Numbered from the stretch's first letter, positions 4,114 through 47,107 are shown. The stretch is 64,000 bases of DNA from an uncultured Anaerolineaceae bacterium (GCA_964626755.1 CAZVGO010000004.1:11272-75271); one strand, 5' to 3'. Program-made: numbers and translations. Notes: generated from the sequence alone by a model not told the origin.

Positions 4114-5751
4114 ATGCCCGACCGTCCCCGGTACTACCTGACGACCGCGATCGCGTACGCGAACAACCGGCCCGGACTCCACACGCTGTTCGAGGTCATC
4201 GGCGCCGACGTCATCGCGCGCTGGCACCGGATGAAGGGCGAGGACGTGCGGTTCCTCACCGGCACCGACGAGTACAGCGTCAACATCGCGCTGACCGCCG
4301 AGGCCCAGGGCAAGGACCCGAAGGCGTTCGTCGACGAGACGGTGGCCCAGTTTCGGACGGCCGAGGACGCGCTCTCGATCAGCCCGGATCGGTTCATCCG
4401 CACCACCGACCCAGATCATCAGCGGGCCGTCCACGAGTTCATCCGCCGGTCGTATGAGAACGGCGACCTGTACCTCGGCACGTACGAGGGCTGGTACTGC
4501 CCGAACGAAGGCTTCGTGCCGAAGGCCCAGCTCATCGACGATGCCGCCGGGACCCACTGCTCACACCATCCCAACGTCGAGCTTCAGTGGCTGTCGGAGC
4601 GGAACTGGTTCTTCCGTCTCTCGAAGTACCAGGAGGCGCTCGAGGGTTACTACGCCGAGCACCCCGACTGGATCGAGCCCGAGTACCGCAAGAACGAGAT
4701 GCTCGGGTTCATGGCCCAGGGCCTCGAGGACTTCTCGGCGTCCCGTCAGAACGCAAAGTGGGGGATCCCGTTCCCGATCGCCGAGAACGGCGAGACCGCC
4801 CGGCGCGAGGACGGCTCGTGGGACCCGGAGGCGGGCACGGTCTACGTGTGGTTCGACGCCCTGATCAACTACGTCACCGGAGCGGGCTTCCCCGACGACC
4901 CCGAGGCATTCGAGAAGTGGTGGCCGGCCGACCTCCACGTCATCGGCAAGGACATCAACCGCCTCCACACGATCATGTGGCCGGCGATGCTCATGAGCGC
5001 CGGTTTGCCCCTGCCGCGCAAGGTCTGGGTCCACGGATGGCTGCTTGTCCAGGGCGAGCGGATGAGCAAGAGCCGGGGCAATTTCCTCGATCCCAACGAC
5101 GTCGTTGCGGCGCTCGGGGCGGATGGAGCGCGCTACGCCACGCTGCGCGAAGTCGCGTTCGACCGCGACTCGGACGTGTCGTGGGACTCGTTCGTGCGCC
5201 GCTACAACGCGGACCTGGCAAACGACTTCGGGAACCTCGTCAACCGGACGGTCTCGATGGCGAATCGTTACCTCAGGGGCGAGCGGCCCGGACCGCGGCC
5301 GCCCGGTGATTCCCCGCTCGCCGAGGCCTGGGACGCCGCGGTTCGAGCCTACGGCGCGAAGCTCGACGCATACCTGCTCCACGAGGCGCTCGCCGAGTTA
5401 TGGGAGTTCGTTGGAGTTGCGAACAAGGCGGTCGACGCGGAGAAGCCGTGGGTCCTCGCGAAGGCCGCGGCCGGTGGCGATGTCGCCGCCACGGAGCGCC
5501 TTCGCGGCGTCCTCGGCGATCTTGTTGAGGCAAGCCGCCTGATCGGCCTGGCGGCGGCGCCGTTCCTGCCGAACACGTCGCCCCGCGTCCTCGCCCAGCT
5601 CGGCTACGACTACCCGTACGCCGCGGACGGCAACGCCGGTCCGCCGATCCTCGACGAGCTCCGCTGGGGCGCCCACGCCGACGCCGAGGGGCGCCTCGGC
5701 ACAGCGGAGCCGCTCTTCCCGCGACTGGATGTCGAGTCGCAGGAGGCCTGA
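4114..5751 (+). CDS. metG: Methionyl-tRNA synthetase
   Basis: 545-aa ORF. The N-terminus YYLTTAIAYANNRPGLHT (HIGH-region context) and the KMSKS-like motif MSKSRGN are present. Confidence 0.9.
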   Translation: MPDRPRYYLTTAIAYANNRPGLHTLFEVIGADVIARWHRMKGEDVRFLTGTDEYSVNIALTAEAQGKDPKAFVDETVAQFRTAEDALSISPDRFIRTTDPDHQRAVHEFIRRSYENGDLYLGTYEGWYCPNEGFVPKAQLIDDAAGTHCSHHPNVELQWLSERNWFFRLSKYQEALEGYYAEHPDWIEPEYRKNEMLGFMAQGLEDFSASRQNAKWGIPFPIAENGETARREDGSWDPEAGTVYVWFDALINYVTGAGFPDDPEAFEKWWPADLHVIGKDINRLHTIMWPAMLMSAGLPLPRKVWVHGWLLVQGERMSKSRGNFLDPNDVVAALGADGARYATLREVAFDRDSDVSWDSFVRRYNADLANDFGNLVNRTVSMANRYLRGERPGPRPPGDSPLAEAWDAAVRAYGAKLDAYLLHEALAELWEFVGVANKAVDAEKPWVLAKAAAGGDVAATERLRGVLGDLVEASRLIGLAAAPFLPNTSPRVLAQLGYDYPYAADGNAGPPILDELRWGAHADAEGRLGTAEPLFPRLDVESQEA

Positions 5752-5944
5752 GCGCCGGGGTCTGTGTCGAATATCAGTGGACGCGATGCAATCGGCGATC
5801 AGGGCGCCCCTCTGCCCCGTACGCCGCCGGGCGCAAGCGTGTCGCGGGCATCCTCCGAGCTGATGACGGCCGCGGAACGTCCGTACCATCGCCGGGGTTG
5901 ATATCTGCGCCAAACGGCCGTGTCACATCGGCGACAATCCGCCG

Positions 5945-6778
5945 ATGCGCCTCGTCGACAGCCATTGCCACCTCCAGGCCGACCGGTTCGACGATGACGT
6001 CGACCTCGTCGTCGGTGGGGCCCGGCTGGCCGGGGTCGAGCGGATCCTCGTCCCCGGCTGGGATCCCGCGTCGTGTGGCCGGGCCATCGGGCTCGTCGAC
6101 CGCTTCCCCTGGCTCGACGCGTCTGTCGGCGTGCATCCCCACGATGCGGCGAACGTCGACGACGACGCCTGGCAGGAGCTCGCCCGCCTGGCCCTCGATA
6201 ATCGCGTCGTCGCAATCGGCGAGACGGGCCTCGACTACGACCGTCTCCACTCGCCGATCCTCGCCCAGCTCGCGAACCTCCGGCGGAACCTCCAGCTCGC
6301 CGCCGAGACCGGCAAGCCTGCCATCCTCCACTGCCGCTCGGTCGAGGGCGAGCGGGAGGCCCAGGACGCGCTGCTGGCGGAGGTCCGGGCTTTTGGCAGC
6401 CGGCCGCCAGCGGTCCTCATCCACTCGTTCTCGGGGCCGGTCGACTATGCCGAGGCGATGCTGGCCCTCGGGGCGGCGATCAGCTTCTCCGGTCTGGTGT
6501 TCCGGCGGGGCGAGGAGGCCTCGGCGGACGTCGTCCGGCTCGTGCCCGAGGACCGCCTGCTCGTCGAGACTGACTCGCCGTTCCTCTCGCCGCCCGGGGC
6601 ACCGCGGGCGCGGAACGAGCCGGAGTGGGTCGTCGTGACCGCACGCTGGGTGGCCGAGCAGCGGGGCGTCGCGCCGGAGGCCCTCGGCGAGGGGCTCGTC
6701 GGAACGTACGACGCCCTCTTCCCGAGCGAGCGGCGCTCGGCGGCGCTGGCTGTTGCCGCCCGCCAAACCCCGTCTTGA
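5945..6778 (+). CDS. tatD: TatD-family metal-dependent hydrolase/DNase
   Basis: MRLVDSHCHL N-terminus and conserved TatD His/Asp/Glu positions. Classic position downstream of metG. Confidence 0.8.
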   Translation: MRLVDSHCHLQADRFDDDVDLVVGGARLAGVERILVPGWDPASCGRAIGLVDRFPWLDASVGVHPHDAANVDDDAWQELARLALDNRVVAIGETGLDYDRLHSPILAQLANLRRNLQLAAETGKPAILHCRSVEGEREAQDALLAEVRAFGSRPPAVLIHSFSGPVDYAEAMLALGAAISFSGLVFRRGEEASADVVRLVPEDRLLVETDSPFLSPPGAPRARNEPEWVVVTARWVAEQRGVAPEALGEGLVGTYDALFPSERRSAALAVAARQTPS

Positions 6779-6806
6779 CAGCCGTCGACCGGCCGCGGTA
6801 CTGTAG

Positions 6807-6833
6807 TTAGCACTCTCACATCGAGAGTGCCAA
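6807..6833 (+). promoter_or_regulatory. CIRCE element (HrcA operator) upstream of groES-groEL
   Basis: TTAGCACTC-tcacatcga-GAGTGCCAA is the consensus TTAGCACTC-N9-GAGTGCTAA with one mismatch. It lies ~170 bp upstream of groES. Confidence 0.8.
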
Positions 6834-7003
6834 GCGACGCGGGAACGCCGATCCGGAGGGGCCCGAGCGGCCCAGAGGAACGGATCGCGACCGCCGCGAC
6901 GCGCTCAATCAAGTTGGCGTGGCTGCCGGACGGCCTCGAGTCTGCCGGCGGCCCGCGATCAGGCGAGTTGGACGGCCCCAGGCCGTCACAGGAGGTACGC
7001 ACC

Positions 7004-7318
7004 TTGGCCACCGCCACCGCAGCCAAGACCAAGCTCCGGCCATTGATGGACCGGGTCGTCGTCAAGCCCACGCCCCGCGAGGAGATGACGAAGTCCGGCA
7101 TCGTGTTGCCCGACACCGCCAAGGAGAAGCCGCAGGAGGGGACCATCCTCGCCGCCGGCCCGGGCGGGTTCGACACCGAGGGCAAGCGGACGCCGATGGA
7201 CGTCAAGGCGGGCCAGAAGGTCCTCTACGCGAAGTACGCCGGGACCGAGTTCAAGATCGACGAAGAGGAGCTCCTGATCGTCAGCCAGAAGGACATCCTC
7301 GCGGTCGTCGAGGACTGA
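7004..7318 (+). CDS. groES: Co-chaperonin GroES (10 kDa)
   Basis: TTG start 8 nt after AGGAGG. The protein (M)[20 protein letters not shown]...[16 protein letters not shown] aligns with actinobacterial GroES. Confidence 0.9.
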
Positions 7319-8995
<1,677 letters not shown>

Positions 8996-37362: not shown

Positions 37363-37388
37363 GAATCGCGCACGGGGACTGACCGACC

Positions 37389-37445
37389 GATGGGGGAGCG
37401 TGGTGCCGAAGCCGGGATTTGAACCCGGACGAGGTTGCCCTCAAC
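37389..37445. repeat. attL: 57-bp direct repeat, a displaced copy of the 3' end of tRNA-Leu
   Basis: Identical over 57/57 bp to 47020..47076. It contains only the T-arm and acceptor 3' half, so it is not a functional tRNA. Confidence 0.85.
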
Positions 37446-37575
37446 GGTGTTTGAGAGCGCCGCCCGGCGTCCGGGAGCGTCTGCCGGTGTTCGGTTTGTG
37501 CTCCCGGACCGTTCTATTCGCCGGGCGGCGTCCGCCGCTGTGCGAGCGTGAAGCTGCCAGATAAGCTGCCAGGCG

Positions 37576-37983
37576 TCAGGCGTCGACGAGCTCCGGCTCA
37601 GCCTCTTCGCGGGCGGCCTTCCGCGCGGCCGCCCCGTTCGGCCAGTGCCCTCGAGGAATGTCCGGGTGCGCCTTCGCGAACGCGACGGCGACCTCGACGA
37701 GGCCGTTGACGAGCTCCTGCGTGGCCGCCCGCTCGACGATCGTGCGGACGTCATGGATCGCCTGCTCGAGCTCGGCGTACTCGCTCGGCCGCATGTCGGC
37801 CCACAGCGTGCCGGGATGGTCCGCCGATGGGCTGAAGTCGTCCGTCCAGACCGCGCGGACCAGGGCACGGTCGCTGTCGATGAGCGGTCGCAGCCAGTCG
37901 AGCTGGATGTCCTCGTCGGCGTACCCGCCGCCGATGCTCTGCGTGAGGGCCTCGCGGATCTCGGTCTCGGTCGGGGCGGTCAT
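37576..37983 (-). CDS. Hypothetical protein (island cargo, attL-proximal)
   Basis: 135-aa ORF with no recognisable domain. The start of the downstream ORF overlaps its stop. Confidence 0.45.
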   Translation of the reverse strand: MTAPTETEIREALTQSIGGGYADEDIQLDWLRPLIDSDRALVRAVWTDDFSPSADHPGTLWADMRPSEYAELEQAIHDVRTIVERAATQELVNGLVEVAVAFAKAHPDIPRGHWPNGAAARKAAREEAEPELVDA

Positions 37984-38177
37984 CGGTCAGTCCTCCTGTC
38001 GTCGAATAGCGGGAGCCTGAGCACACGGCGCGTCGCCATCGCGGCCCGTGCCTCAATTTCCCGCAGACGCTCCTCGCGGACAAGCCGCTCATGGAGCTCG
38101 GGGTCGTCCTGGAGCCGCCACAGGCGCGCCAGCGCGCCCACCGTGCGCCACGTCTCGGCCGTCTCGGGATCGACCAT
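37980..38177 (-). CDS. Small hypothetical protein (65 aa), Arg/Glu-rich
   Basis: ATGA overlap with the downstream ORF. Confidence 0.3.
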   Translation of the reverse strand: MVDPETAETWRTVGALARLWRLQDDPELHERLVREERLREIEARAAMATRRVLRLPLFDDRRTDR

Positions 38178-38397
38178 CGCTCACCTCCTGAACGCCAACG
38201 CCCCCGACGACGGTGAGTACAGCACCGACGCCAGGGGCGAGGTCAGGATGACGTATTCGGGGGGCCGCTGTACTCGGCCCGGTGATCCTACGCCGTCGCA
38301 GCTGCCCCGGCAAGCCGGCTCTACCCCGCCGGCGGCCGTCGAGTGGCCGTGGTGACCGGATTCGCCCGTGTCACACTTTCGGGCGGCCTGCCGGGCG

Positions 38398-38712
38398 CTA
38401 GGCGTCCAGGTTGCGGGGACCGCCGATTGGAGTGGCGCTCTCGTCGAGCGGACCGATCAACATCCGGACAAGCTCGCCGCAGTCCGGGCACCCGGAAGGC
38501 AAGGCCAGCTGACCGCGGGATCCGCACGCGTGACACTCGAACAGGACGGTGCCCGGCTCGCGGGCGAGGAGCTCCTCGCCACAGTCGGGGCAGGTGCTCG
38601 TGTCGACGTCCGGCCGCGCCGGCGAGATGAGGGTCCAGCACGCCAGGCAGGAGAACAGGCGCCGGCCGGCGAGGTCCTCCGGGGTCGACGGTCGGACGCG
38701 GGAGCTCGTCAC
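38398..38712 (-). CDS. Zinc-ribbon protein (four CxxC motifs)
   Basis: CLAC...CPDC...CHAC...CPDC; starts 2 nt after the tape-measure-like stop. Confidence 0.45.
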   Translation of the reverse strand: MTSSRVRPSTPEDLAGRRLFSCLACWTLISPARPDVDTSTCPDCGEELLAREPGTVLFECHACGSRGQLALPSGCPDCGELVRMLIGPLDESATPIGGPRNLDA

Positions 38713-38713
38713 C

Positions 38714-40462
38714 TCAGTAGCCCTCGGTCGACCAGCGGAGCGCGGCCCGCCGGAGCGCTCGACCCGTCTCGCGCTCGACGTCGCCCGGCTGGACGCCGTA
38801 GATGTTCTGGGAGCCGATCAGCGGGCCGCCGCGCCCCCCGCCGCCCGAGAGGATCAGCCTCGCCGCCGCCGTGATGGTCTCGCTGTCACCGGCGGGCGCC
38901 ACGGCCGAATGCCTGGGCAGGAAGACGGTCTCGGGGCCACGCTCGTTCATCCGGGCGAACCCGCCCATCCAGTCGCGGTCGCCGCCGGCGAGGCGCGGGA
39001 TCGTCTTGAGGCCGAGGCCTGGCCAGTCGAACCGGGCGACGACGCCGAATGGCGTCTCGAACCCGGGGATGTGGATCTGGATGCCGTTCAGGTGGCGGAT
39101 CATCCCGTTGACGAGATCGATGACGAAGTTGATCCCGCCCTTGATGACGTTGCCGATCCCCTTCCACAGCCCGGTGAAGAACCCTGTCAACCCCTGCCAC
39201 GCGTCCGTCACGAAGCTGGCCGCCGCGACGATGGCGCCTGCCGCGACGTCGAAGACGCCCACCGCGATCGAGAGGGAGGCCTTGACGGCCACGGCGATCC
39301 CGCCGAAGACCCGCCCGAACAGGTTGCCGAGGAACGCGACCACGCCCGGGATCGTGTCGCCGAGCCACTTCACGACGACCGCGAAGATGGGCTGGAGGCG
39401 CTTCCACACGGCCTCGAGGAAGCTGCGGATGCCGCCCCAGTCGGATTCCCACGCCTCGAACAGGATGGCGACGGCCGCGACGACCGCGCCGACCGCGAGG
39501 ATGAGCGGGGCGAGTGCCAGGACCATCGACACGATCGCCGGGACCACGGCCGCAGCGATCACGAGGGCCAGAGCGGTCGCGATCGGGACCGCGTGCTCCT
39601 GCACGAAGGCGAAGACGGCCTCGAGCTCCGGTCGCAGCTGCTCGAACAGGTCCTTGCCCGCCTGGATCGCGGGGCCGAGCATGTCCCGGAGGCCGGTCGC
39701 CAGTGTGATCACGGCAGGGTAGAGGGCGGTGATGATGCCCTCGACCATCTCGGCGAACATCGCGGACATTTCGTTGCCCACGCGGATGCCCTCGGCCGTG
39801 CCGGCGGCGTAGGCGGCCTGCGCGTCGGTCGTCTTCTCGAAGAGCAGCTGCTGGGTCGCGAGCGCCTTTGCCTGCTCGAGCGCCGAGCCGGTCAGTGCGT
39901 CCTGGCCGTTCTTGAGCAGGCGGGCCGACACGTCGGCCTCGGTGATCGAGATCCCGAGCTCCTTGAGGCCGTCCCGCTCGCCGAGCAGGCTCTTCTGCAG
40001 GACCACGGCGACCTCGGCCGCGGTGCGGGTCCCGCCCGACCACTCGGACAGCGCGCCGGACAGGCCGATGATGTCGGTCGACATCTCGGCGGCCTGCTCC
40101 CGGGACATGCCCATCGGGACGAGGAGGTCGCCGAGGTTCGCCGCGAGCCCGGTCGCCTCCCGCCGGGTGAGGCCCATCGCCGCGGCGCTCGTGGCGGCCC
40201 ACTTCTCCACGACGCCCAGGCTCTCGCCGAAGACGGTCTGCGCCTTCGCGTCCATCGCCTCGAATTTGGCCCCGACGTCGAAGACCTGCTTGCCGATGGC
40301 GAGCGCGGCACCGAGGGCCGTGGCGATGACGACCGTGGCCTTCTTCGCGACGTCGGCGAGCGAGGTGAACAGGCCCTTCGAGCCCTTCACGCCCGAGTCG
40401 AACTTCGAGCGGTCGAGCGCCAAGGTCGCATAGAGCGCCCCGACGGGGATCCCGGCGGCCAT
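38714..40462 (-). CDS. Phage tail tape-measure-like protein (TP901-type core), short form (582 aa)
   Basis: N-terminal LALDRSKFDSGVKG...AKFEAMDAKAQTVFG pattern, a long Ala/Val/Ile-rich hydrophobic segment, and a Gly-rich C-terminus. These are typical of TMPs. Confidence 0.65.
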   Translation of the reverse strand: MAAGIPVGALYATLALDRSKFDSGVKGSKGLFTSLADVAKKATVVIATALGAALAIGKQVFDVGAKFEAMDAKAQTVFGESLGVVEKWAATSAAAMGLTRREATGLAANLGDLLVPMGMSREQAAEMSTDIIGLSGALSEWSGGTRTAAEVAVVLQKSLLGERDGLKELGISITEADVSARLLKNGQDALTGSALEQAKALATQQLLFEKTTDAQAAYAAGTAEGIRVGNEMSAMFAEMVEGIITALYPAVITLATGLRDMLGPAIQAGKDLFEQLRPELEAVFAFVQEHAVPIATALALVIAAAVVPAIVSMVLALAPLILAVGAVVAAVAILFEAWESDWGGIRSFLEAVWKRLQPIFAVVVKWLGDTIPGVVAFLGNLFGRVFGGIAVAVKASLSIAVGVFDVAAGAIVAAASFVTDAWQGLTGFFTGLWKGIGNVIKGGINFVIDLVNGMIRHLNGIQIHIPGFETPFGVVARFDWPGLGLKTIPRLAGGDRDWMGGFARMNERGPETVFLPRHSAVAPAGDSETITAAARLILSGGGGRGGPLIGSQNIYGVQPGDVERETGRALRRAALRWSTEGY

Positions 40463-40499
40463 CAGGCGTGCACCGGCTGGCGGATCGCGCGGATCGTGG

Positions 40500-40832
40500 T
40501 CATCTCATCTCCTCGTTCACAGGGTCGGACGGTGGCGTCCAGGACAGCGGTGCGCTCAGGCGCGCGCTCATCTGGAGCTCGAGGACGCGATCGCGGGCCC
40601 GATCGCTCGCGGTGCACGCCTCGCACGGTGGCGGGTCGTCGACTCGCCGGCGATCGACCGGGCCGCAGCCTCGCCGCGCCTCGAGGGCCTCGAGCAGCCC
40701 GCGGCTGAGCCGGTACGCGCCCTCGTGGTCGCCCCGCTCGACGAGGACCTCGAGCTCCGGCAGGTCCACGCGCCACCAGGTATCGCCGGGCGGACGATGC
40801 CGAGGAGCGGCGGGAGCGCGCAGGACGGCCAC
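40500..40832 (-). CDS. Hypothetical protein (Cys-containing), between the TerS-like and tape-measure-like genes
   Basis: GTG at 40832, 12 nt after the upstream stop. The N-terminal part of the track ORF is rejected as non-coding. Confidence 0.25.
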   Translation of the reverse strand: MAVLRAPAAPRHRPPGDTWWRVDLPELEVLVERGDHEGAYRLSRGLLEALEARRGCGPVDRRRVDDPPPCEACTASDRARDRVLELQMSARLSAPLSWTPPSDPVNEEMR

Positions 40833-40843
40833 GACCCGACAGC

Positions 40844-41248
40844 CTATCCCGCGCGCCCGGCGCCGCGGCGAGCCCAGCGGGCCCGCGCTGCCGAACGTGC
40901 GCGGACCGATGCCAGGCTTGTGATGCGATCGGTCCCGTCGCCCGGCTGCGCCGTCGTGGCGTCGGGCAGGTCGAGCTGCGCCGCCAGGCGGGCCACGATG
41001 ACGCGATGGGCCCGCTCCTCGGCAAGCAGGGGGTGGGCGACCGTCTGGCCCCGGCTGCCGGTCACCACGGCACCGTCGGTCGCGACGATCGCGCGGACTT
41101 CGTCGACACGATCGAGGGACCGCGCCAGCTCGTGGAGGAGGGCGAGCTCGCGCGGTGCGAAGTCGTACGTGGCGAGGAGCTTCCGCCACAGCCGGCGGCC
41201 ACGGCCACCGGGTGCCAGGTCGGGAGGTGGTGAGCGGCGCGCCGTCAC
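40844..41248 (-). CDS. Possible phage small terminase subunit (P27-like), tentative
   Basis: The segment RLWRKLLATYDFAPRELALLHELARSLDRVDEVRAIVATDGAVVTGSRGQTVAHPLLAEERAHRVIVARLAAQLDLPDA resembles the P27-family pattern. GTG at 41248. Confidence 0.35.
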   Translation of the reverse strand: MTARRSPPPDLAPGGRGRRLWRKLLATYDFAPRELALLHELARSLDRVDEVRAIVATDGAVVTGSRGQTVAHPLLAEERAHRVIVARLAAQLDLPDATTAQPGDGTDRITSLASVRARSAARARWARRGAGRAG

Positions 41249-41411
41249 GAATAACCACCCGCTAATCGGGCGTTGTGGCCGGTTTGGGGTGCATATACGG
41301 CCGATAATCGGCGCGACCGGACCAGGGGGGGGACCCCCAAGTCCCGTCGAGGGAGCGGCCACCTGCGCACGCCCGCCACCGTGCGTACGTGCTTGCGGGC
41401 CAGTTTCCCGG

Positions 41412-41732
41412 TCATGCCGGAGCCCGCCGCGGTGCCACTGCCCCGACGTGGACGTCGGTCGGGCCGTAGGAACCGTCCGGCCTCCACCCGACGCGTCGCT
41501 CCCAGCGCTGGGGCGGCCGCGGTGAGCCGTCGGTGCCGAGCAGCTTCCTGATCGCCGGCGAGCTGTCCTCCGGCCGACTGCGGACGTCGCCGGCGACCCG
41601 GTCCCGCGCCTGGCCGAGCCGCTCGGCGGTCCGAGCTCGATCACGTCCGGCGGCCGAGGCCTGAGCGACGCGATCGGCCGATGTGACCCGGCCTGACGGC
41701 ATGCTCTCTCGCGGCAGCTCGCGGTAGGCCAT
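41412..41732 (-). CDS. Hypothetical protein
   Basis: ORF whose ATG lies 2 nt after the upstream gene's stop. Function unknown. Confidence 0.3.
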   Translation of the reverse strand: MAYRELPRESMPSGRVTSADRVAQASAAGRDRARTAERLGQARDRVAGDVRSRPEDSSPAIRKLLGTDGSPRPPQRWERRVGWRPDGSYGPTDVHVGAVAPRRAPA

Positions 41733-41734
41733 CG

Positions 41735-42247
41735 TCAGCCCCGCGGGATCGCGGCCACGTCGGCCACGGTATCGAACGTCTCGGCCGCCGGCGGATCCCA
41801 GTCGGCCAGGCCGTTCGACGCCTGGTGATCCGCCAGCTCGCCGATCGCTTTCCAGACGCTGCCCATGTCGCCGGTACGGATCGTCTCGGTCCAGGCTTCG
41901 ACGTTCGAGTCCCAGGCGAACTGCGCGTGCTCGGTCAGCGACTTGAACACGGGATCCTTGTGGAGCTTGGCCCGGCGAGTGGCCGCGGACTCGATGCGCG
42001 ACTCGGCGATCGTCGAATGGGCCATCTGCCGAAGAGCCTCGTACCGCGGCCGGTACGCGGCATAGGCCGCCTTCCGGTCATCCCGCTGGCGGTTCGTCTC
42101 CACCTGGCGATCGACATACTCCTCGAGCTCATTGGCGAGGCGCTTCCTCTTCACGTCCGGGTCTTCGGCCATCCCGGGCGGACCCTCCCAGGCGTCGGCG
42201 AGGTTGGTCAGGCGCTGTCCGGGGTTCGTGCGCTTCGGCTTCGTCAT
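41735..42247 (-). CDS. Hypothetical phage-associated protein (170 aa)
   Basis: MTKPKRTNPGQRL...; the ATG overlaps the upstream ORF stop (ATGA). Confidence 0.5.
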   Translation of the reverse strand: MTKPKRTNPGQRLTNLADAWEGPPGMAEDPDVKRKRLANELEEYVDRQVETNRQRDDRKAAYAAYRPRYEALRQMAHSTIAESRIESAATRRAKLHKDPVFKSLTEHAQFAWDSNVEAWTETIRTGDMGSVWKAIGELADHQASNGLADWDPPAAETFDTVADVAAIPRG

Positions 42248-42711
42248 GCGGCGATCGTCGTCCCTGCCGACTTTGCGCGCGACTTTGCACAGCGACCGCG
42301 GCCGCCGCACCACGATCGCGGTCGCCCCATGCCCCGAGCTGGCAGCGGGGCGCCGCATCCGCGGCAGCGGCCCGGCCGGGGTTTCCGCGCGAAAACTGTC
42401 CGCGGCCCCTTGGCCTCGAGCTCGGCGAGGTCGAGCATGCGGCCGGCGGCCCGCCGCAGGGCCTCGACCATGACCCGCGGCAGGCCGTGCCCGTGGTCGT
42501 CGGCGATCGCGACGAGCGCGCGCGACAGGTTCTCCGGCGTCCATTCGGGGCCGCTCACAGCGCCAACCCGACGCGCTCCAGGCAACGCGGGCACCGCGAT
42601 CGAGCTGGCCAGGCGTTGCGCTCGGCCGTCGGCGTCGCCCCGCAGGCTGTCCGGCCCGACCCGGCGCGTGGCGGCTGGGCGTGGCCCACGCCATCGCGGC
42701 CGGCGACCCAC
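42244..42711 (-). CDS. Hypothetical small basic protein with a C-terminal Cys cluster (CRGCG...WCGGRGRC). Start uncertain
   Basis: Its stop overlaps the downstream ATG. Confidence 0.3.
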   Translation of the reverse strand: MGRRPRWRGPRPAATRRVGPDSLRGDADGRAQRLASSIAVPALPGARRVGAVSGPEWTPENLSRALVAIADDHGHGLPRVMVEALRRAAGRMLDLAELEAKGPRTVFARKPRPGRCRGCGAPLPARGMGRPRSWCGGRGRCAKSRAKSAGTTIAA

Positions 42712-42747
42712 ACGAACCGCCCGACCGGCATCAGCTCGTCGGGCGGG

Positions 42748-44418
42748 TCACGATGCCCACCCGGGCTCGACGAGGCCCTGAGCAGCGATCGCCGCGACGT
42801 CGTCGGGCATACCCTCGACCCGGTCCTCGTCGCCGCCGTCGAAGATGCCGACCCCCTCGTCGCCGACTGACACGGCCTCGACTGACACTGACACCACGTC
42901 ACCCCCTACGGGGGGAGTGACGCTGTCAGCGCGATCTACTGACATGACAGTGTCAACGCCTGACGCTGACGCCCCGCCCACGCTCGCGGGGCCACTGACA
43001 GGCGGACTGACAGGCACTGACACGGCCCCCGACACGCGAAGTGGCATGTCAGGCTCCACGCGCCCGGTCTCGCGGAGCTTCGCGATCTGCCGCCAGACCG
43101 TCCGCTCGGACAGCTCGAGGTAGGTCGCGATGGCCCCGGCGTCGGCGTACCCGGTGGCGATGCAGCCGTGAATCTTCTCCATCGTGCTGACGCCGAGATC
43201 CTCGCCGGCGACGACCTGGACGACGTCGAACGTGCCGCCCTCGGCCCGGAGGACGAGCTGCGCGTGGGGGGCGCGCTTGCGGACGGTCCAGAGGACGCGC
43301 TGGGCGCCGGCGTCGGCCATGAGCGCGACGGTGTCGGCCTGGCGGGTCCACTGACCCATGACGTCGGCGAGGGCGGTCCCGTGCTGGGCGTTCGGCTCGG
43401 GCTTGCCGCGGGCCTTCGCCCCGCCGGCGACCCTGGCCGGCTTGACGAGGTGGACGAAGACAATGATCGCGCAGCCGTACTGGCGGGCGAGGCCCCGGAG
43501 GAACCGGATCGCGGCCTTGAGCTCCTTGCCCCACTCGTCGCCGAGCATGCTCGAGCCGGTGTCGAACATCACGACCGCGGGCTCGACCCGCTCGATCGAC
43601 GCCCGGATGTAGGCCTGGTCGAGCGGGTCGGTCAGCGACAGGCCCTCGAGGCTGACCCCCCAGTAGTCGGCCAGGTCGGCCCGGGTGAGGCCGAGGCGGG
43701 CCAGGGTCTCTTCCTCGCGCCGGACCTCCTCCTCCTCGCCGTTCTCGACGTCGATCGACAGGACGCGCCCCGGGCGCGGGATCCGGTAGTGGTTGAAGAG
43801 CGCACCGTGGCCGGTCGCCTTCCGGATCCCGAGCTCGATCCGGGCGTGCGATTTGCCAAGGCCCTCGGGCCCCGCGACGACGAGCAGCCGACGTCGCCGG
43901 AGGAGGCTGTCGATCTCCCAGTCGTCGACCATGGCGGCCGCCGCATCGGCCTCGCTCCGCGGCCGCGGCCAGGGACGCTCCTCAGCGTGCCTTTCAGTGA
44001 CGTGAATGGCACGCGCCGGCGTCCGGGCCGCCCGGTCGCGTTCGAGGCCGGCGACGGCGGCCAGGTAGTCCTCCGGGCTGTCGTAGCCGGCGGCGTGCAG
44101 CGAGTCGACGAGTCGGGCCCGCCAGCCGGCGGCGTCGACCACGATCGCCTCACGCTCCTCGTCGGTCAGGCGATTCCACGGGTCGATCCGGTCCGCCGAG
44201 GCCGTGAGCTCAGCCTCCGCGCGGATCCCGGCGCTGTCCGCCGGCGCGTGGCCGTTCGGCTTGCTCTTGCGAACGTTCCGCGCGGAGACTTTCCGGGCCC
44301 CTGGCGCCGCCGGCAGCCACACCGGCGCGCCGGCGTTGGCATCGCCTGCAGCTTTCGGCGCGGCCGTGCCCTCGAAGAACGACGCGACCTCGGCTTCCTT
44401 CGCGGAACGTCTGGTCAT
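42748..44418 (-). CDS. Replication protein: RepA-like/AAA_25-type RecA-fold ATPase with a C-terminal HTH and a low-complexity VSV-rich tail
   Basis: Walker A VVAGPEGLGKS; Walker B-like VVMFDTGSS; HTH ATYLELSERTVWRQIAKLRETG. The ATG at 44418 is inside track ORF 42748..44562. Confidence 0.65.
   Translation of the reverse strand: MTRRSAKEAEVASFFEGTAAPKAAGDANAGAPVWLPAAPGARKVSARNVRKSKPNGHAPADSAGIRAEAELTASADRIDPWNRLTDEEREAIVVDAAGWRARLVDSLHAAGYDSPEDYLAAVAGLERDRAARTPARAIHVTERHAEERPWPRPRSEADAAAAMVDDWEIDSLLRRRRLLVVAGPEGLGKSHARIELGIRKATGHGALFNHYRIPRPGRVLSIDVENGEEEEVRREEETLARLGLTRADLADYWGVSLEGLSLTDPLDQAYIRASIERVEPAVVMFDTGSSMLGDEWGKELKAAIRFLRGLARQYGCAIIVFVHLVKPARVAGGAKARGKPEPNAQHGTALADVMGQWTRQADTVALMADAGAQRVLWTVRKRAPHAQLVLRAEGGTFDVVQVVAGEDLGVSTMEKIHGCIATGYADAGAIATYLELSERTVWRQIAKLRETGRVEPDMPLRVSGAVSVPVSPPVSGPASVGGASASGVDTVMSVDRADSVTPPVGGDVVSVSVEAVSVGDEGVGIFDGGDEDRVEGMPDDVAAIAAQGLVEPGWAS
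42866..43026. repeat. Iteron-like cluster: at least 8 direct copies of (A)CTGACA(C/G/T) plus a palindromic TGACAGTGTCA
   Basis: Copies at 42866, 42881, 42888, 42938, 42994, 43006 and 43016. The palindrome is at 42945..42955 and a tandem TGACGC x2 at 42961. All lie inside the 3' end of the rep gene. Confidence 0.6.
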
Positions 44419-44703
44419 GGCCGCGGGCAGCACGCGCCGACCTCCTCGAGCAGCCGCAGGTCGGTGCGGACAGCGGAGGCCTCCGCCCGCCGGCCGACGG
44501 CGTCGAGGTGATCGCGGAGCTGCTCGAGGTGCCTGGCCAGGCGCTCGCGGGCCGTCCGGCAAGCGATCCCTTCGCGCGGATGACCGCGACGAGCTCGATG
44601 CCCCCGACGCGGGGCCGGCCGGCTGATCCCGAGCCGGCCCGCGTCGGGGAGGAGGACGTGATCCGCAGAAGACGACGGATCAGGTTGTGGCCCGCGTCGA
44701 CGC

Positions 44704-44761
44704 GGCCAATGCGCCGTCGAGGACCTCAGATGGTCAGGTCGACGCGGATCGCGCATTGGCC
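44704..44761. promoter_or_regulatory. Large hairpin (11-bp perfect arms ggccaatgcgc/gcgcattggcc) spanning the 3' end of the Xis-like gene
   Basis: Seen directly. It could be a terminator or a protein-binding site between the regulatory and replication modules. Confidence 0.3.
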
Positions 44762-45015
44762 TCGCGCCTCCCGACGTCGCCGTTGACGTAGCTCGCGATC
44801 GCGCCCGCCGGCACCAGGCGCCGGCGACCGATGGTGACGGTTCGAAGCCGGCCCGCCGCGATCTCGCCGTAGAGTGCGGATCTGCCGATTCCGAGCCGCT
44901 CCGCGGCAAGCGTGGTCGACAGGAGCTGCTCGGGCGCCGTCGCAGGCGCGATCGCGAGCTCCTCGCGGAGCGCGTCGACGAGCTCGGCAACGGCGGCCAC
45001 CAGGCGATCGCTCAT
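44734..45015 (-). CDS. Excisionase-like HTH DNA-binding protein (MerR/Xis superfamily)
   Basis: LSTTLAAERLGIGRSALYGEIAAGRLRTVTIGRRRLV is a classic actinophage Xis/HTH pattern. Confidence 0.6.
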   Translation of the reverse strand: MSDRLVAAVAELVDALREELAIAPATAPEQLLSTTLAAERLGIGRSALYGEIAAGRLRTVTIGRRRLVPAGAIASYVNGDVGRREANARSAST

Positions 45016-45200
45016 CGAGCGGGCACCTTCGGCCGCCCGGCCACCGCCTCACGCTCGATCCCGTCGACGAGGATGCGCAGGGCCTCGCGCTTGGGGTCCC
45101 GGTAGTTCTGCCGCGCCAGGTCGCCGAGCGCGTCGCTCGTCTCGGGCGGCAGGGTCAGAACGAGCCGCGGCCACGTCCGCCGGGTCGAGTGTGAGTCCAT
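45012..45200 (-). CDS. Ribbon-helix-helix (CopG/Arc-like) DNA-binding protein
   Basis: LTLPPETSDALGDLARQNYRDPKREALRILVDGIER; its stop overlaps the Xis-like ATG. Confidence 0.6.
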   Translation of the reverse strand: MDSHSTRRTWPRLVLTLPPETSDALGDLARQNYRDPKREALRILVDGIEREAVAGRPKVPAR

Positions 45201-45241
45201 GAGGCGTATTGGGCCGGACTACAGGCCCTCGTGTCGCGGAC

Positions 45242-45272
45242 CAAAAGCGGCAGCCGCCAACAGCCGCTTTTG
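45242..45272. terminator. Perfect 10-bp inverted repeat (caaaagcggc/gccgcttttg) between the int-proximal operon and the RHH gene
   Basis: Seen directly. Candidate terminator and/or operator. Confidence 0.4.
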
Positions 45273-45279
45273 CCCGCCC

Positions 45280-45753
45280 TCAGAGTCGGCGGCGTTGCGC
45301 CTCAGCCTTGGCCCATGCCCACGTCTTGCCAGCCGCTCGCAGCTGCGCCCGGATCCAGCGCTCCTCGCCGACCGCCGAGTTGCGGCCGAAGTCGTCCTGA
45401 GTCGGCGGCCACGACCCCGACCATTCGACGAGCGCCGCGACGATCCGCTCCGCTGCCGCCATCGCCGGCTCCGCCTCGGCATCGGGCAGCGTGATCGCGC
45501 CGTCGCGCGCGACCACCCCAAACCGCTCGCACCGCCGACAGCGGACAACCACCGTGCCATCGCGACCCGAGAGCCAGTCGAGCTCCGGACCGTCGCGCAG
45601 CCATGGGGCGACACAGTTCGCGGCGTGGGCGATCGATCGCGGTGCCGCGAGCAGCACGGCGGCGGGCATCGCGCGGAGCTCTGGGGGTTCAATCGGGTGC
45701 CGGAGGGCTTCGCTCAGCCAGCGGATGGCGTCCTGAGCCGTCTCGTCGGTCAT
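45280..45753 (-). CDS. Hypothetical protein (157 aa), co-transcribed with the integrase
   Basis: The ATG overlaps the integrase stop (ATGA). Contains CRRCERFG. Confidence 0.5.
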   Translation of the reverse strand: MTDETAQDAIRWLSEALRHPIEPPELRAMPAAVLLAAPRSIAHAANCVAPWLRDGPELDWLSGRDGTVVVRCRRCERFGVVARDGAITLPDAEAEPAMAAAERIVAALVEWSGSWPPTQDDFGRNSAVGEERWIRAQLRAAGKTWAWAKAEAQRRRL

Positions 45754-46892
45754 CGCGCACCGCCTCCCAGCGCCCGATCCAGGGCGTCTGCTGCCGCGCG
45801 TCGCTGGTCCGGCGTGACGTGCGAGTAGACGTCGGCGGTGATCGTGATCGACGAATGACCGAGGGCCCGCGATACCTCGAGGAGCGAGGCGCCCTGGGCA
45901 AGCATGAGCGACGCCGCGGTGTGCCGGAGGTCGTGGAGGCGCACCGGGAGCCCGAGCCGGTCGGCGGCCGCGCGGAAGGCCGCGGAGACCGTGTACGGCG
46001 CCCACGGCCGCCCCAGCGCGTCCGTGAAGGCCAGGCGGTCCCGGTCCTGCCACGATGCGCCGGCGGCGAGGCGCTCGGCCGCCTGGCGGGCTTTCTGGCG
46101 CCGGAGGCCGTCGATCGCGGTCGTCGTCAGGTCCACGGTCCGGCGGCTCCGGGCCGTCTTCGGCTCCGCGAGCTCCCACCCGCCGCCGTGGGCCCGCGAC
46201 AGGGAGCGCCGGACCGTGAGCGATCGCCCCTCGAGGTCGACGTCGGTCCATCGCAGCCCGAGCAGCTCGCCGAGCCGGAGCCCGGTGCCGGTCGCGACCG
46301 CGAAGAGCGGCCCGAATGGATCGTCCGCAGTCGCGTCGATCAGGCGGCCGACCTCGCCGGCCGTCAGGGCCCGCATCTCGCGCCGCTCGAGGCGCGGCGG
46401 CCGCGCCAGGGCGGCCACGTTCCGGGTGAGCAGCCCGTCGCGCTGCGCGTCGTGGAGCGCGCGCCGGAGGGTCGATCGGGCGTGTCGGATCGTCTGCGAC
46501 GAGAGCCCGCGACCGGCGAGCTCGGCCATCGTCCGCTCGACGTGCGCCGGCGTCAGCTTGGTCAGCGGGATCCGCGCCAGGGCGGACCAGTAGGCCGAGA
46601 CGTGACGGGCGTACTCGCGGTGCGTGGCGGCCCGGAGTCGCGGCCGGACCGCGACGACCCATCCCGCCAGGTAGGCGCCCGTCGTCTCGCCGGTCGCGAA
46701 CCCCGCGCTCGCCTCGCGGCGCAGCGCCTCGAACTTGCGGACGACGTCGGCCCGCGTGCGACCCGACACATAGCGGCGGACGCTCCGGGTCCCGTCGGGG
46801 TGGGGGAGTACGAGCGACCCGCGGAGTCGGCCGTCGGCGGTCGGGTAGATCGCGCCTTCGCCGGCGGATCTCCGGGCGGTAGACTTGGCCAT
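45750..46892 (-). CDS. int: Tyrosine-type site-specific integrase (phage integrase family)
   Basis: MAKSTARRSAGEGAIYPTADGRLRG N-terminus. The C-terminal catalytic region has RHTAAS...HSSITIT...Y (R-H-R-Y pattern). It sits adjacent to the tRNA. Confidence 0.9.
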   Translation of the reverse strand: MAKSTARRSAGEGAIYPTADGRLRGSLVLPHPDGTRSVRRYVSGRTRADVVRKFEALRREASAGFATGETTGAYLAGWVVAVRPRLRAATHREYARHVSAYWSALARIPLTKLTPAHVERTMAELAGRGLSSQTIRHARSTLRRALHDAQRDGLLTRNVAALARPPRLERREMRALTAGEVGRLIDATADDPFGPLFAVATGTGLRLGELLGLRWTDVDLEGRSLTVRRSLSRAHGGGWELAEPKTARSRRTVDLTTTAIDGLRRQKARQAAERLAAGASWQDRDRLAFTDALGRPWAPYTVSAAFRAAADRLGLPVRLHDLRHTAASLMLAQGASLLEVSRALGHSSITITADVYSHVTPDQRRAAADALDRALGGGAR

Positions 46893-47019
46893 TGGGTGGC
46901 GTCCTCCGTAGCAGGAGCGCGACCTTGACGGCCTCCGGTTCGCGCCGGGGGCCGTCGCGCTATGTCCGTCAGTGTACGCCATTGTCGCGGACCGCGAAGC
47001 TGCCGCGAAGCTGCCAGGG

Positions 47020-47076
47020 GTGGTGCCGAAGCCGGGATTTGAACCCGGACGAGGTTGCCCTCAACGGTGTTTGAGA
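47020..47076. repeat. attR: 57-bp direct repeat forming the 3' part of the intact tRNA-Leu
   Basis: Identical to 37389..37445. Confidence 0.85.
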
Positions 47077-47107
47077 CCGTCGCGTCTGCCAGTTCCGCCA
47101 CTTCGGC
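47021..47107 (-). tRNA. tRNA-Leu (anticodon CAA), class II with a long variable arm and encoded CCA
   Basis: Acceptor stem GCCGAAG/CTTCGGC, anticodon loop CTCAAAC, T-loop GGTTCAAATCC, long variable arm. Confidence 0.85.

Follow-up and report, generated by a model that had tools for sequence, protein, structure and literature searches.

What kind of mobile element has entered a tRNA-Leu gene of an uncultured member of the Chloroflexota, and could it be a satellite of phages? The question is raised by a block of about 9.6 kb in a stretch of 64,000 nucleotides (GCA_964626755.1 CAZVGO010000004.1:11272-75271, in the following called the window), which is deposited under the name of an uncultured Anaerolineaceae bacterium. 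The block, referred to as the island, lies between two copies of a direct repeat and encodes an integrase, small putative regulators, a replication protein (Rep), a small terminase (TerS) and a tape measure protein (TMP). An earlier note on this DNA, made from its sequence alone, had proposed a candidate actinobacterial phage satellite. The analysis presented here indicates that the island is rather likely to be an integrative, self-replicating and phage-derived satellite that resembles the phage-inducible chromosomal islands (PICIs); its candidate status is based on gene content and on comparison with related elements.

Clean insertion into a tRNA-Leu gene

An exact sequence search over the window identified a perfect direct repeat of 57 bp, around which the similarity of the two copies reaches 64 nt at 97%. 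An exact repeat of this length cannot be due to chance in 64 kb. ARAGORN found a single tRNA gene in the window, tRNA-Leu(CAA), and Rfam agreed with a score of 56.3 bits. The repeat corresponds to tRNA nucleotides 32-87 plus one base, so that the identity starts at the first base of the anticodon loop. Williams reportedly described in 2002 that this loop is the usual crossover position for tyrosine integrases that target tRNA genes. Perfect repeats had already been reported in the earlier note, which had the right copy (47020..47076) correct; its left copy (37389..37445) was 11 nt off, however, and the two stretches named there differ from each other. The true left copy lies at 37400..37456.

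The gene for DnaE sits 1.6 kb left of the island, and relatives of this protein led us to two metagenomic contigs, L018 and L019 (98% and 93% amino acid identity), with an empty site. Both contain, in this order, dnaE, a TerB-domain gene, a 4HBT thioesterase, small open reading frames (ORFs), tRNA-Leu(CAA) and an extracytoplasmic function (ECF) sigma factor; the tRNA gene is uninterrupted and the island is missing. In blastn comparisons L018 was 95.3% identical to the left flank of the window over 13.9 kb, then 91.6% identical up to position 37363, and 92-95% identical to the right of the tRNA. The flanks of L019 are about 80-92% identical to the window. The 64-nt att region of L018 aligns with both copies in the window, and the 37 bp left of the distal repeat (37363..37399) match the sequence which directly follows the tRNA in L018 and L019. 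From the two empty sites and the matching 37-bp edge it follows that 9,620 bp, i.e. the interior of the island plus one repeat, were inserted cleanly. The insertion is site-specific, is located at the anticodon loop of tRNA-Leu(CAA) and was made via the tyrosine integrase. The island supplied a new 3' part of the tRNA, and the old 3' part was moved 9.6 kb away. On an evolutionary time scale the island has been mobile. Three expectations of the earlier note are therefore borne out: the right repeat is the 3' end of an intact tRNA gene, the left repeat is an orphan 3' fragment displaced by integration, and alleles with an empty site exist.

The note had also suggested a comparison of composition. 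The GC content of the island (0.728) does not differ from that of the flanks (0.713), but the tetranucleotide frequencies do: the L1 distance is 0.151 for the island versus 0.092 +/- 0.006 for host chunks of equal size, which is about 10 standard deviations off. The tetranucleotide signature of the island is foreign to the host.

Two further details were seen at the borders. Between the left flank and tRNA-Leu, L018 (15324..15662) and L019 (15262..15600) contain about 315 bp with an ORF of 112 aa, which the window does not have. The breakpoint of this missing piece is at window position 37363, 37 bp from the distal att copy; its absence may be a deletion tied to integration or excision at a hotspot. 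An 11-bp tandem repeat, CCGCGAAGCTG, next to the att core is a possible arm-type binding site for the integrase (Int) or the excisionase (Xis).

The sequences around and within the island also identify the host. DnaE is 90% identical to Candidatus Limnocylindrales proteins, and all of its named relatives at 75-90% identity come from Candidatus Limnocylindrales or from metagenome-assembled genomes (MAGs) of Chloroflexota. A genome scan with a Rep alignment produced seven loci, six of them in Chloroflexota MAGs (Anaerolineaceae, Chloroflexia, Limnocylindrales) and one in a genome labelled Candidatus Eisenbacteria. By these relationships the host is an uncultured Candidatus Limnocylindrales (Chloroflexota) bacterium, and the term actinobacterial in the earlier note has to be given up.

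A replicon and a small terminase

An AlphaFold model of Rep, based on 24 homologues, was confident for residues 160-480 (pLDDT about 85-95). In a Foldseek search this model matched DnaB-family helicases (2e-10) and RepA of RSF1010 (1nlf_A, TM score 0.68, target-normalised); a sequence search of the PDB with Rep gave no match. The protein has no primase domain, and several relatives carry an N-terminal Prim-Pol domain. With the AAA_25 and HTH_11 domains and a DnaB/RepA fold, the description as a RepA-like AAA ATPase with a C-terminal helix-turn-helix (HTH) was right.

All seven exact copies of the heptamer TGTCAGT in the 64-kb window fall within 157 bp (42866..43022); about 2.2 scattered copies are expected by chance. 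Clusters of seven to nine copies occur at the equal place in the related elements L006, L007, L008, L010 and L020/21, and five copies are present in L068. The iterons noticed earlier are thus real and conserved. The array encodes the C-terminal ~70 residues of Rep (about 490-561; window 42748..42960), which are predicted to be disordered; this fits a constraint on the DNA rather than on the protein. According to these predictions, the origin appears to be overprinted on the rep coding sequence, an arrangement kept in related elements. We presume that the array is an origin bound by the winged HTH of Rep. The island hence has what is expected of a PICI in this respect, i.e. its own replicase (AAA_25 plus winged HTH) and its own origin with conserved iterons.

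TerS scored 24.1 bits against Pfam Terminase_4, just under the cutoff of 24.7, and this profile was matched by 26 of 45 aligned TerS homologues. In tblastn searches the protein was 36-45% identical to the annotated TerS gp1/gp2 of Microbacterium phage Footloose and Mycobacterium phage Bernal13. An exhaustive search resulted in 2,820 representative homologues; most of the best 150 have a length of about 110-170 aa. Together with the PHROG match (Table 1), these data uphold the assignment as a P27-like TerS. The small terminase of a PICI is therefore present on homology, and the redirecting of packaging is its predicted role.

Related elements share a backbone and differ in a slot

The related elements are known only from the Rep-based searches and from protein-cluster contexts. 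Scans of metagenomic and viral contig collections with an alignment of four TerS sequences found nothing, and the family is small as sampled. Two sister elements have a size similar to that of the island, namely L006 (9.8 kb) and L007 (10.1 kb), the latter with perfect direct repeats of 21 bp at its ends. The island, L006 and L007 have in common the Rep core with the origin (79-83% nucleotide identity), orf106, TerS and orf110; L007 further has orf62, xis and orf135. Downstream of TerS follows a slot with different content: the TMP in the island, proteins of 141 and 303 aa in L007 and of 320 and 164 aa in L006. The slot proteins of L006 and L007 had no match in Pfam or PHROGs, and a PDB search with the 303- and 320-aa proteins was also negative. 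No morphogenesis gene was detected in L006 and L007. Related islands with variable cargo, which the earlier note had advised to look for, therefore exist.

A second variable position follows the integrase. The integrases of the island, L006 and L007 are only 36-48% identical, and the next gene encodes a protein of 157-160 aa in all three (1393..1875 in L006, 1414..1893 in L007). These proteins have no detectable similarity, and we rejected the idea that they are homologues. The slot is fast-evolving or swapped and might hold an immunity or specificity factor.

The conserved genes are maintained. TerS is 79-85% identical on the amino acid level in L006 and L007, and in a Nei-Gojobori comparison of window, L006 and L007 the dN/dS of TerS was 0.18-0.26 and that of the Rep core about 0.3; orf62, xis and orf135 had values of 0.33-0.37. 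The value for orf110 is about 0.8-0.9, which indicates a weak, near neutral constraint. By this estimate TerS is under purifying selection in at least three such islands. With a TerS dN/dS of about 0.2, intact ORFs and perfect att repeats there is no sign of decay; the argument that this is not an old decayed prophage holds.

A more distant relative, L012 (8005..15775), lies on a 730-kb contig of a Chloroflexia MAG. It comprises int, orf62, Rep, TerS (38% amino acid identity), a 120-aa protein and a major head protein of 560 aa (phrog_10, 6e-38). L012 resembles the mycobacterial elements phiRv1/phiRv2 or a minimal capsid-forming island. No large terminase (TerL) or portal gene was found in L006 and L007, nor near these genes in L012.

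Other elements with a Rep/iteron module have a different content. L008/L011, from an Anaerolineaceae MAG, contains int, Rep, iterons and an MmeI-type restriction-modification enzyme of 898 aa (5037..7733), and has no TerS. L068 (3854..13266) also lacks TerS; it combines the Rep/iteron module (75% amino acid identity) with an HTH_31 regulator and a uracil-DNA glycosylase (UDG), and its serine recombinase appears to interrupt an MMPL gene. In L010 (2929..11193), which is about 8 kb long, Rep combines Prim-Pol with AAA_25 and is accompanied by iterons; the element further encodes an Endonuclease_7 and a short Terminase_6N protein of 286 aa, and its integrase is at the far end, beside tRNA-Pro(GGG). 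From this distribution the Rep/iteron replicon is a module shared by different kinds of integrative elements in Chloroflexota, and the elements with TerS are, as judged by their genes, a satellite-like subset.

The same distribution suggests another explanation. The island could be an integrative, plasmid-like element which is not transduced, and the TerS and TMP homologues could be cargo that poisons the packaging or tail assembly of incoming phages. The association of the Rep-iteron module with cargo as unrelated as the enzyme of L008 and the regulator, UDG and serine recombinase of L068 fits a general integrative replicon, and defences on mobile elements that interfere with phage assembly are known (PMC11364771, PMC10884400). 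However, TerS is full-length and conserved together with two flanking partner genes in three islands, no island protein had a convincing match to a PADLOC defence model, and L012 joins TerS to a major head protein, which points to the formation of particles and not just to interference. The spread of the family would also be unexplained if the element had no route of transfer. Together, these results make it quite unlikely that the island is a plasmid-like element of this kind.

The tape measure protein

The protein in the slot of the island was recognised as a TMP by several methods. It matches 14 TMP PHROGs (best phrog_991, 8e-25) and one solved chain in the PDB (9j1k_J, 4e-9). The latter is FtbJ, which we take from the gene name to be an F-type tailocin protein. 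All tblastn matches were annotated TMPs of actinophages; a single-protein scan of the viral contig collection with the TMP found nothing. Residues 59-289 are 61-68% identical to the TMPs of five phage contigs (L002, L005, L064-L066), and on the nucleotide level the identity is 73-77% over about 600 bp. The TMP of L005 has the same length as that of the island. In 5 of 5 cases the homologue is located in a siphophage morphogenesis module, with TerL, portal, protease, capsid and connector genes before it and tail-tip genes after it. The tape-measure-like gene of the earlier note thus has the right identity, but the Pfam match that was anticipated for it failed: PhageMin_Tail does not match the island TMP, although PF10145 is carried by a distant homologue, P0106.

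The GC content at third codon positions is higher in the TMP gene (0.96) than in any other gene of the island. The zinc-ribbon protein encoded behind it has no tblastn match in L006 or L007, from which the TMP is likewise absent. Judged from these features, the TMP and its coupled zinc-ribbon gene look like an intact capture from a phage into the variable slot of an older chassis. Apart from the TMP, tblastn searches with composition correction, in both directions, found nothing shared between the island and the TMP-related phage contigs. An unfiltered tblastx search had produced about 1,000 matches, which were spurious effects of high GC and were discarded.

Another possible origin is a small temperate siphophage from which the head, tail and lysis genes were deleted while int, xis, rep, TerS and TMP were retained, leaving a cryptic prophage remnant that is still excisable and has no helper-dependent cycle. 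TerS and TMP are ordinary phage genes in phage order, and deletions between and after them would yield the map of the island. Moreover, the nearest TMP relatives are found in small phage genomes of about 18 kb, and direct evidence for mobilisation is absent. Several observations speak against such a remnant. At least three independent elements of about 10 kb keep the backbone (70-83% nucleotide identity) with no head or tail-tube gene, and two of them have no TMP; purifying selection acts on TerS and Rep; no ORF is interrupted, and the two att repeats match perfectly. No remnants of TerL, portal, capsid or tail-tube genes were found between TerS and TMP or after the TMP, nor any other remnant of a phage gene within the island, and its TMP is all that it has in common with the phages from which the related TMPs come. 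We therefore consider a deletion-derived remnant unlikely, though it is the rival explanation with the best chance.

Gene map of the island

The remaining features are listed in Table 1. The supported genes between the two repeats are all oriented alike, on the minus strand, and the gene order as read from the tRNA is that of the earlier note: int, orf157, orf62, the xis-type gene, Rep, orf155, orf170, orf106, TerS, orf110, TMP, the zinc-ribbon gene, orf65 and orf135. Overlaps of the ATGA type, described there as the usual case, do exist; but with 4 of 13 junctions (int/orf157, orf62/xis, orf155/orf170, orf65/orf135) "mostly" was overstated.

Table 1. Features of the island and its borders (positions in the window).
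Feature	Position	Strand	Basis
Distal att copy, displaced original 3' part of tRNA-Leu	37400..37456		identical to 47020..47076
orf135, backbone gene	37576..37983	-	54% aa identity at equal terminal position in L007; no Pfam, PHROG or PADLOC match
orf65, ATGA overlap with orf135	37980..38177	-	no family match
Double zinc-ribbon protein, 104 aa	38398..38712	-	DUF7129 4e-8, Zn_ribbon_6 3e-5; starts 1 nt past TMP stop codon
Tape measure protein (TMP), full-length, 582 aa	38714..40462	-	phrog_991 8e-25
orf110, partner gene right after TerS	40500..40832	-	40-47% aa identity in L006 (94 aa) and L007 (101 aa)
Small terminase (TerS), P27 (Terminase_4) type, 134 aa	40844..41248	-	phrog_1496 9.8e-17
orf106, backbone gene upstream of TerS	41412..41732	-	54-59% aa identity in L006 and L007, in frame of their called genes
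orf170, predicted helical	41735..42247	-	called as gene in Logan assembly
orf155, uncertain gene, true start probably later, Cys-rich C-terminus	42244..42711	-	weak L006 match (40% over 76 aa, 5e-5); no family match
Rep, RecA-fold SF4 (DnaB/RepA-type) helicase with winged HTH; start possibly up to 44562	42748..44433	-	AAA_25 1e-14, HTH_11 6e-6
Iteron array within 3' end of rep, presumed replication origin	42866..43022	-	7 exact TGTCAGT plus degenerate and inverted copies
HTH_17 excisionase/AlpA-type DNA-binding protein, 93 aa	44734..45015	-	HTH_17 2e-6, phrog_66, TIGR01764 near cutoff
orf62, ribbon-helix-helix-like by inspection only	45012..45200	-	56-61% aa identity in L007 and L012; no Pfam, PHROGs or NCBIfam match
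orf157, variable slot	45280..45753	-	no family match; sister islands with unrelated 159-/160-aa proteins
Tyrosine integrase, 380 aa as called, 410 aa from ATG at 46982	45750..46892	-	Phage_integrase 1.8e-21, Phage_int_SAM_1, phrog_1 8.8e-69
11-bp tandem repeat CCGCGAAGCTG, 2.2 copies, perfect	46992..47015		between int start and att core
Proximal att copy, 3' part of intact tRNA-Leu	47020..47076		exact search, ARAGORN
tRNA-Leu(CAA), integration target	47021..47107	-	ARAGORN, Rfam

The Phage_integrase match (1.8e-21) supports the tyrosine integrase that had been proposed, and the Xis-like HTH agrees with the matches to HTH_17 and excisionase profiles. The latter protein scored 28.4 bits with Pfam HTH_17 (cutoff 27) and 28.7 bits with TIGR01764 'excise' (cutoff 28.8), and is 67% identical on the amino acid level to its counterpart in L007. 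These profiles are compatible with an excisionase, with an activator of the AlpA type or with a protein that serves as both. A divergent Stl-like repressor is absent from the island.

Searches of Pfam, PHROGs and NCBIfam detected no capsid, portal, large terminase, major tail (tube) or lysis (holin/lysin) gene in the island, in agreement with the earlier note. A promoter scan found none, and a terminator-like hairpin (45250..45267) is located downstream of orf157. A single-sequence AlphaFold model of orf157 was unusable (pLDDT 49), and an Rfam match to Cyano-2 was under the gathering score and was taken as chance.

The map was also compared with that of conjugative elements. Actinomycete integrative and conjugative elements (AICEs), other integrative and conjugative elements (ICEs) and integrative mobilisable elements (IMEs) integrate in tRNA genes, have an int-xis-rep arrangement and are about 9-24 kb long. 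In size, tRNA target and the order int-xis-rep the island is like pSAM2 and SLP1 of actinomycetes. However, none of its ORFs matched an FtsK/SpoIIIE-type translocase, a relaxase, a coupling protein or a type IV secretion gene in Pfam, NCBIfam or PHROGs; the only large protein besides Rep is the TMP, and the host is no actinomycete. We rejected this reading for the lack of any transfer gene, and its probability is very low.

Is the island a phage satellite?

By its architecture the island contains four of the five core components that SatelliteFinder uses for PICIs (integrase, a putative regulator, replicase and TerS); the fifth, an optional capsid-morphogenesis gene of Type A only, is lacking. 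Tail genes count as 'forbidden' in the PICI model of this program (PMC10085698). Four of five components in the presence of a TMP are the reason why we call the island PICI-like rather than a PICI. The PICI-type architecture claimed in the earlier note is supported for integrase, replicon and TerS, with the regulators as putative ones, and the TMP breaks the PICI model.

A number of points weigh against the interpretation as a satellite. The rule that excludes tail genes is broken by a full-length TMP. This protein was found in one family member only and may be a passenger that was acquired when a phage recombined with the element. The Rep/iteron module also occurs in elements with no TerS (L008, L068), and the replicon alone is therefore no sign of satellite biology. 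None of the island ORFs matched a capsid-morphogenesis or packaging-interference gene in Pfam, PHROGs or NCBIfam. There is no helper phage within the 64-kb window and none was identified. The Logan contig L001 (9,623 bp), which was assembled independently from the public run SRR10083321 and is identical to window 37427..47049, was considered as a circular or excised form of the island and rejected: it spans the interior and k-1 = 30 nt of each repeat, as results from a break of the k=31 graph at the 57-bp repeat, and gives no evidence of a circle. Finally, the source is a MAG, and both the host assignment and the contiguity depend on the assembly. In spite of these points, we hold that a PICI-like satellite is the probable identity of the island.

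Comparison with known satellites

The phage satellites of Proteobacteria and Firmicutes are well characterised, and those of Actinobacteria have become so only recently. A TMP encoded by a satellite was considered anomalous until recently.

Among the closest known systems are the PICIs with a Gram-negative layout, e.g. EcCICFT073 (PMC10085698). They have in common with the island a size of about 10 kb, an integrase at the att end, genes on one strand, a protein of the AlpA/HTH_17 type as putative regulator, a replication protein with an adjacent iteron origin and a small terminase, and both lack large terminase, portal, capsid, tail tube and lysis genes. The island differs in having no recognisable gene for capsid morphogenesis or packaging interference, a helicase-only Rep, a TMP and a host from the Chloroflexota; the likeness is one of layout. 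The statement that PICI-type satellites are hardly described in high-GC Actinobacteria is outdated, since Mycobacterium and Rhodococcus are already among the genera with predicted elements of this type (PMC10085698). Elements of the phiRv1/phiRv2 type from Mycobacterium are scored as PICI by SatelliteFinder (PMC10085698). These are integrated, about 10 kb long and contain an integrase, a primase/replicase and a few head or packaging genes; L012 with its TerS and head protein looks most alike. They differ from the island by a serine integrase and by capsid, protease and terminase genes, whereas the island has no head genes and a TMP instead.

The TMP has two kinds of precedent. In Vibrio cholerae, the satellite PLE11 carries genes for a TMP, for a tail assembly chaperone and for a baseplate hub; its chimeric tails are about 10 nm shorter than those of the helper, and the 80-aa protein Rta blocks the helper TMP (PMC12987554). 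Putative tmp genes are also listed in PLE-like elements and capsid-forming PICIs (cf-PICIs) (PMC12987554). Like the island, PLE11 has its own TMP; in PLE11 this TMP replaces that of the helper, and small proteins act on helper tail assembly. Unlike the island, which is known from its genes alone and has only the TMP and the zinc-ribbon protein, PLE11 exploits a lytic myovirus helper, carries chaperone and hub genes and has another integrase and replication module. The second precedent is described in a preprint of 2025: EPIPs of Mycolicibacterium aichiense are 11 kb long, carry TerS and TMP and have altered tail lengths (PMC12822802). As compared by description only, both the EPIPs (about 11 kb) and the island are high-GC elements with TerS and TMP and no tail tube or lysis genes. 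The EPIPs, which were isolated as particles, differ in that they have a serine integrase and genes for a head-tail adaptor, a stopper and a scaffold as well as capsid-related ones; the island has a tyrosine integrase and a Rep/iteron replicon, and it lacks head and connector genes. A TMP that is "atypical for known satellites", in the words of the earlier note, is indeed unusual, but with the experimental case of PLE11 and with the EPIPs it is no longer unprecedented. The small temperate siphophages with the closest TMPs (L002, L005, L064-L066) carry TerL, portal, protease, capsid, connector and tail-tip genes and have otherwise nothing in common with the island.

Proposed mechanism and significance

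If the island is a satellite, the following cycle can be proposed. Upon infection by, or induction of, a helper siphophage, Int and the HTH_17 protein would excise the island. Rep would melt the iteron origin and recruit the host primase and polymerase, and the island TerS would pair with the large terminase of the helper and direct island DNA into helper capsids. The 582-aa TMP would take the place of the ruler of the helper and give rise to chimeric tails with a length set by the island, as in PLE11. A small co-transcribed protein, most obviously the zinc-ribbon protein that is coupled to the TMP, may block helper tail assembly. By analogy, ruler substitution in hijacked tails is most likely the role of the TMP. 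More speculatively, and we regard this as possible rather than probable, the island may represent a previously undescribed lineage of Chloroflexota satellites, in which a chassis of int, regulator, Rep/iterons and TerS is combined with one exchangeable virion part after TerS: the tape measure in the island, the capsid protein in L012 and the 303- and 320-aa proteins in L007 and L006. The member with the TMP would then build chimeric tails and, in the manner of PLE11, exclude the helper TMP with a small inhibitor, a strategy that would have evolved separately among siphophages and their satellites.

A full-text literature search found no studies of phage satellites in Chloroflexota. The Limnocylindria are abundant yet uncultured members of this soil and freshwater phylum, and their phages are almost unstudied. 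The Chloroflexota host raises rather than lowers the interest of the island, which is a delimited element with an empty site, a defined origin and a few relatives. As such it can seed profile searches for satellites and their helpers in this phylum. If the interpretation is true, the satellite TMP would add a second or third independent example of a tail-ruler substitution, a strategy that was shown experimentally only in 2026, and would support the view that satellites hijack tails in as modular a manner as they hijack capsids.

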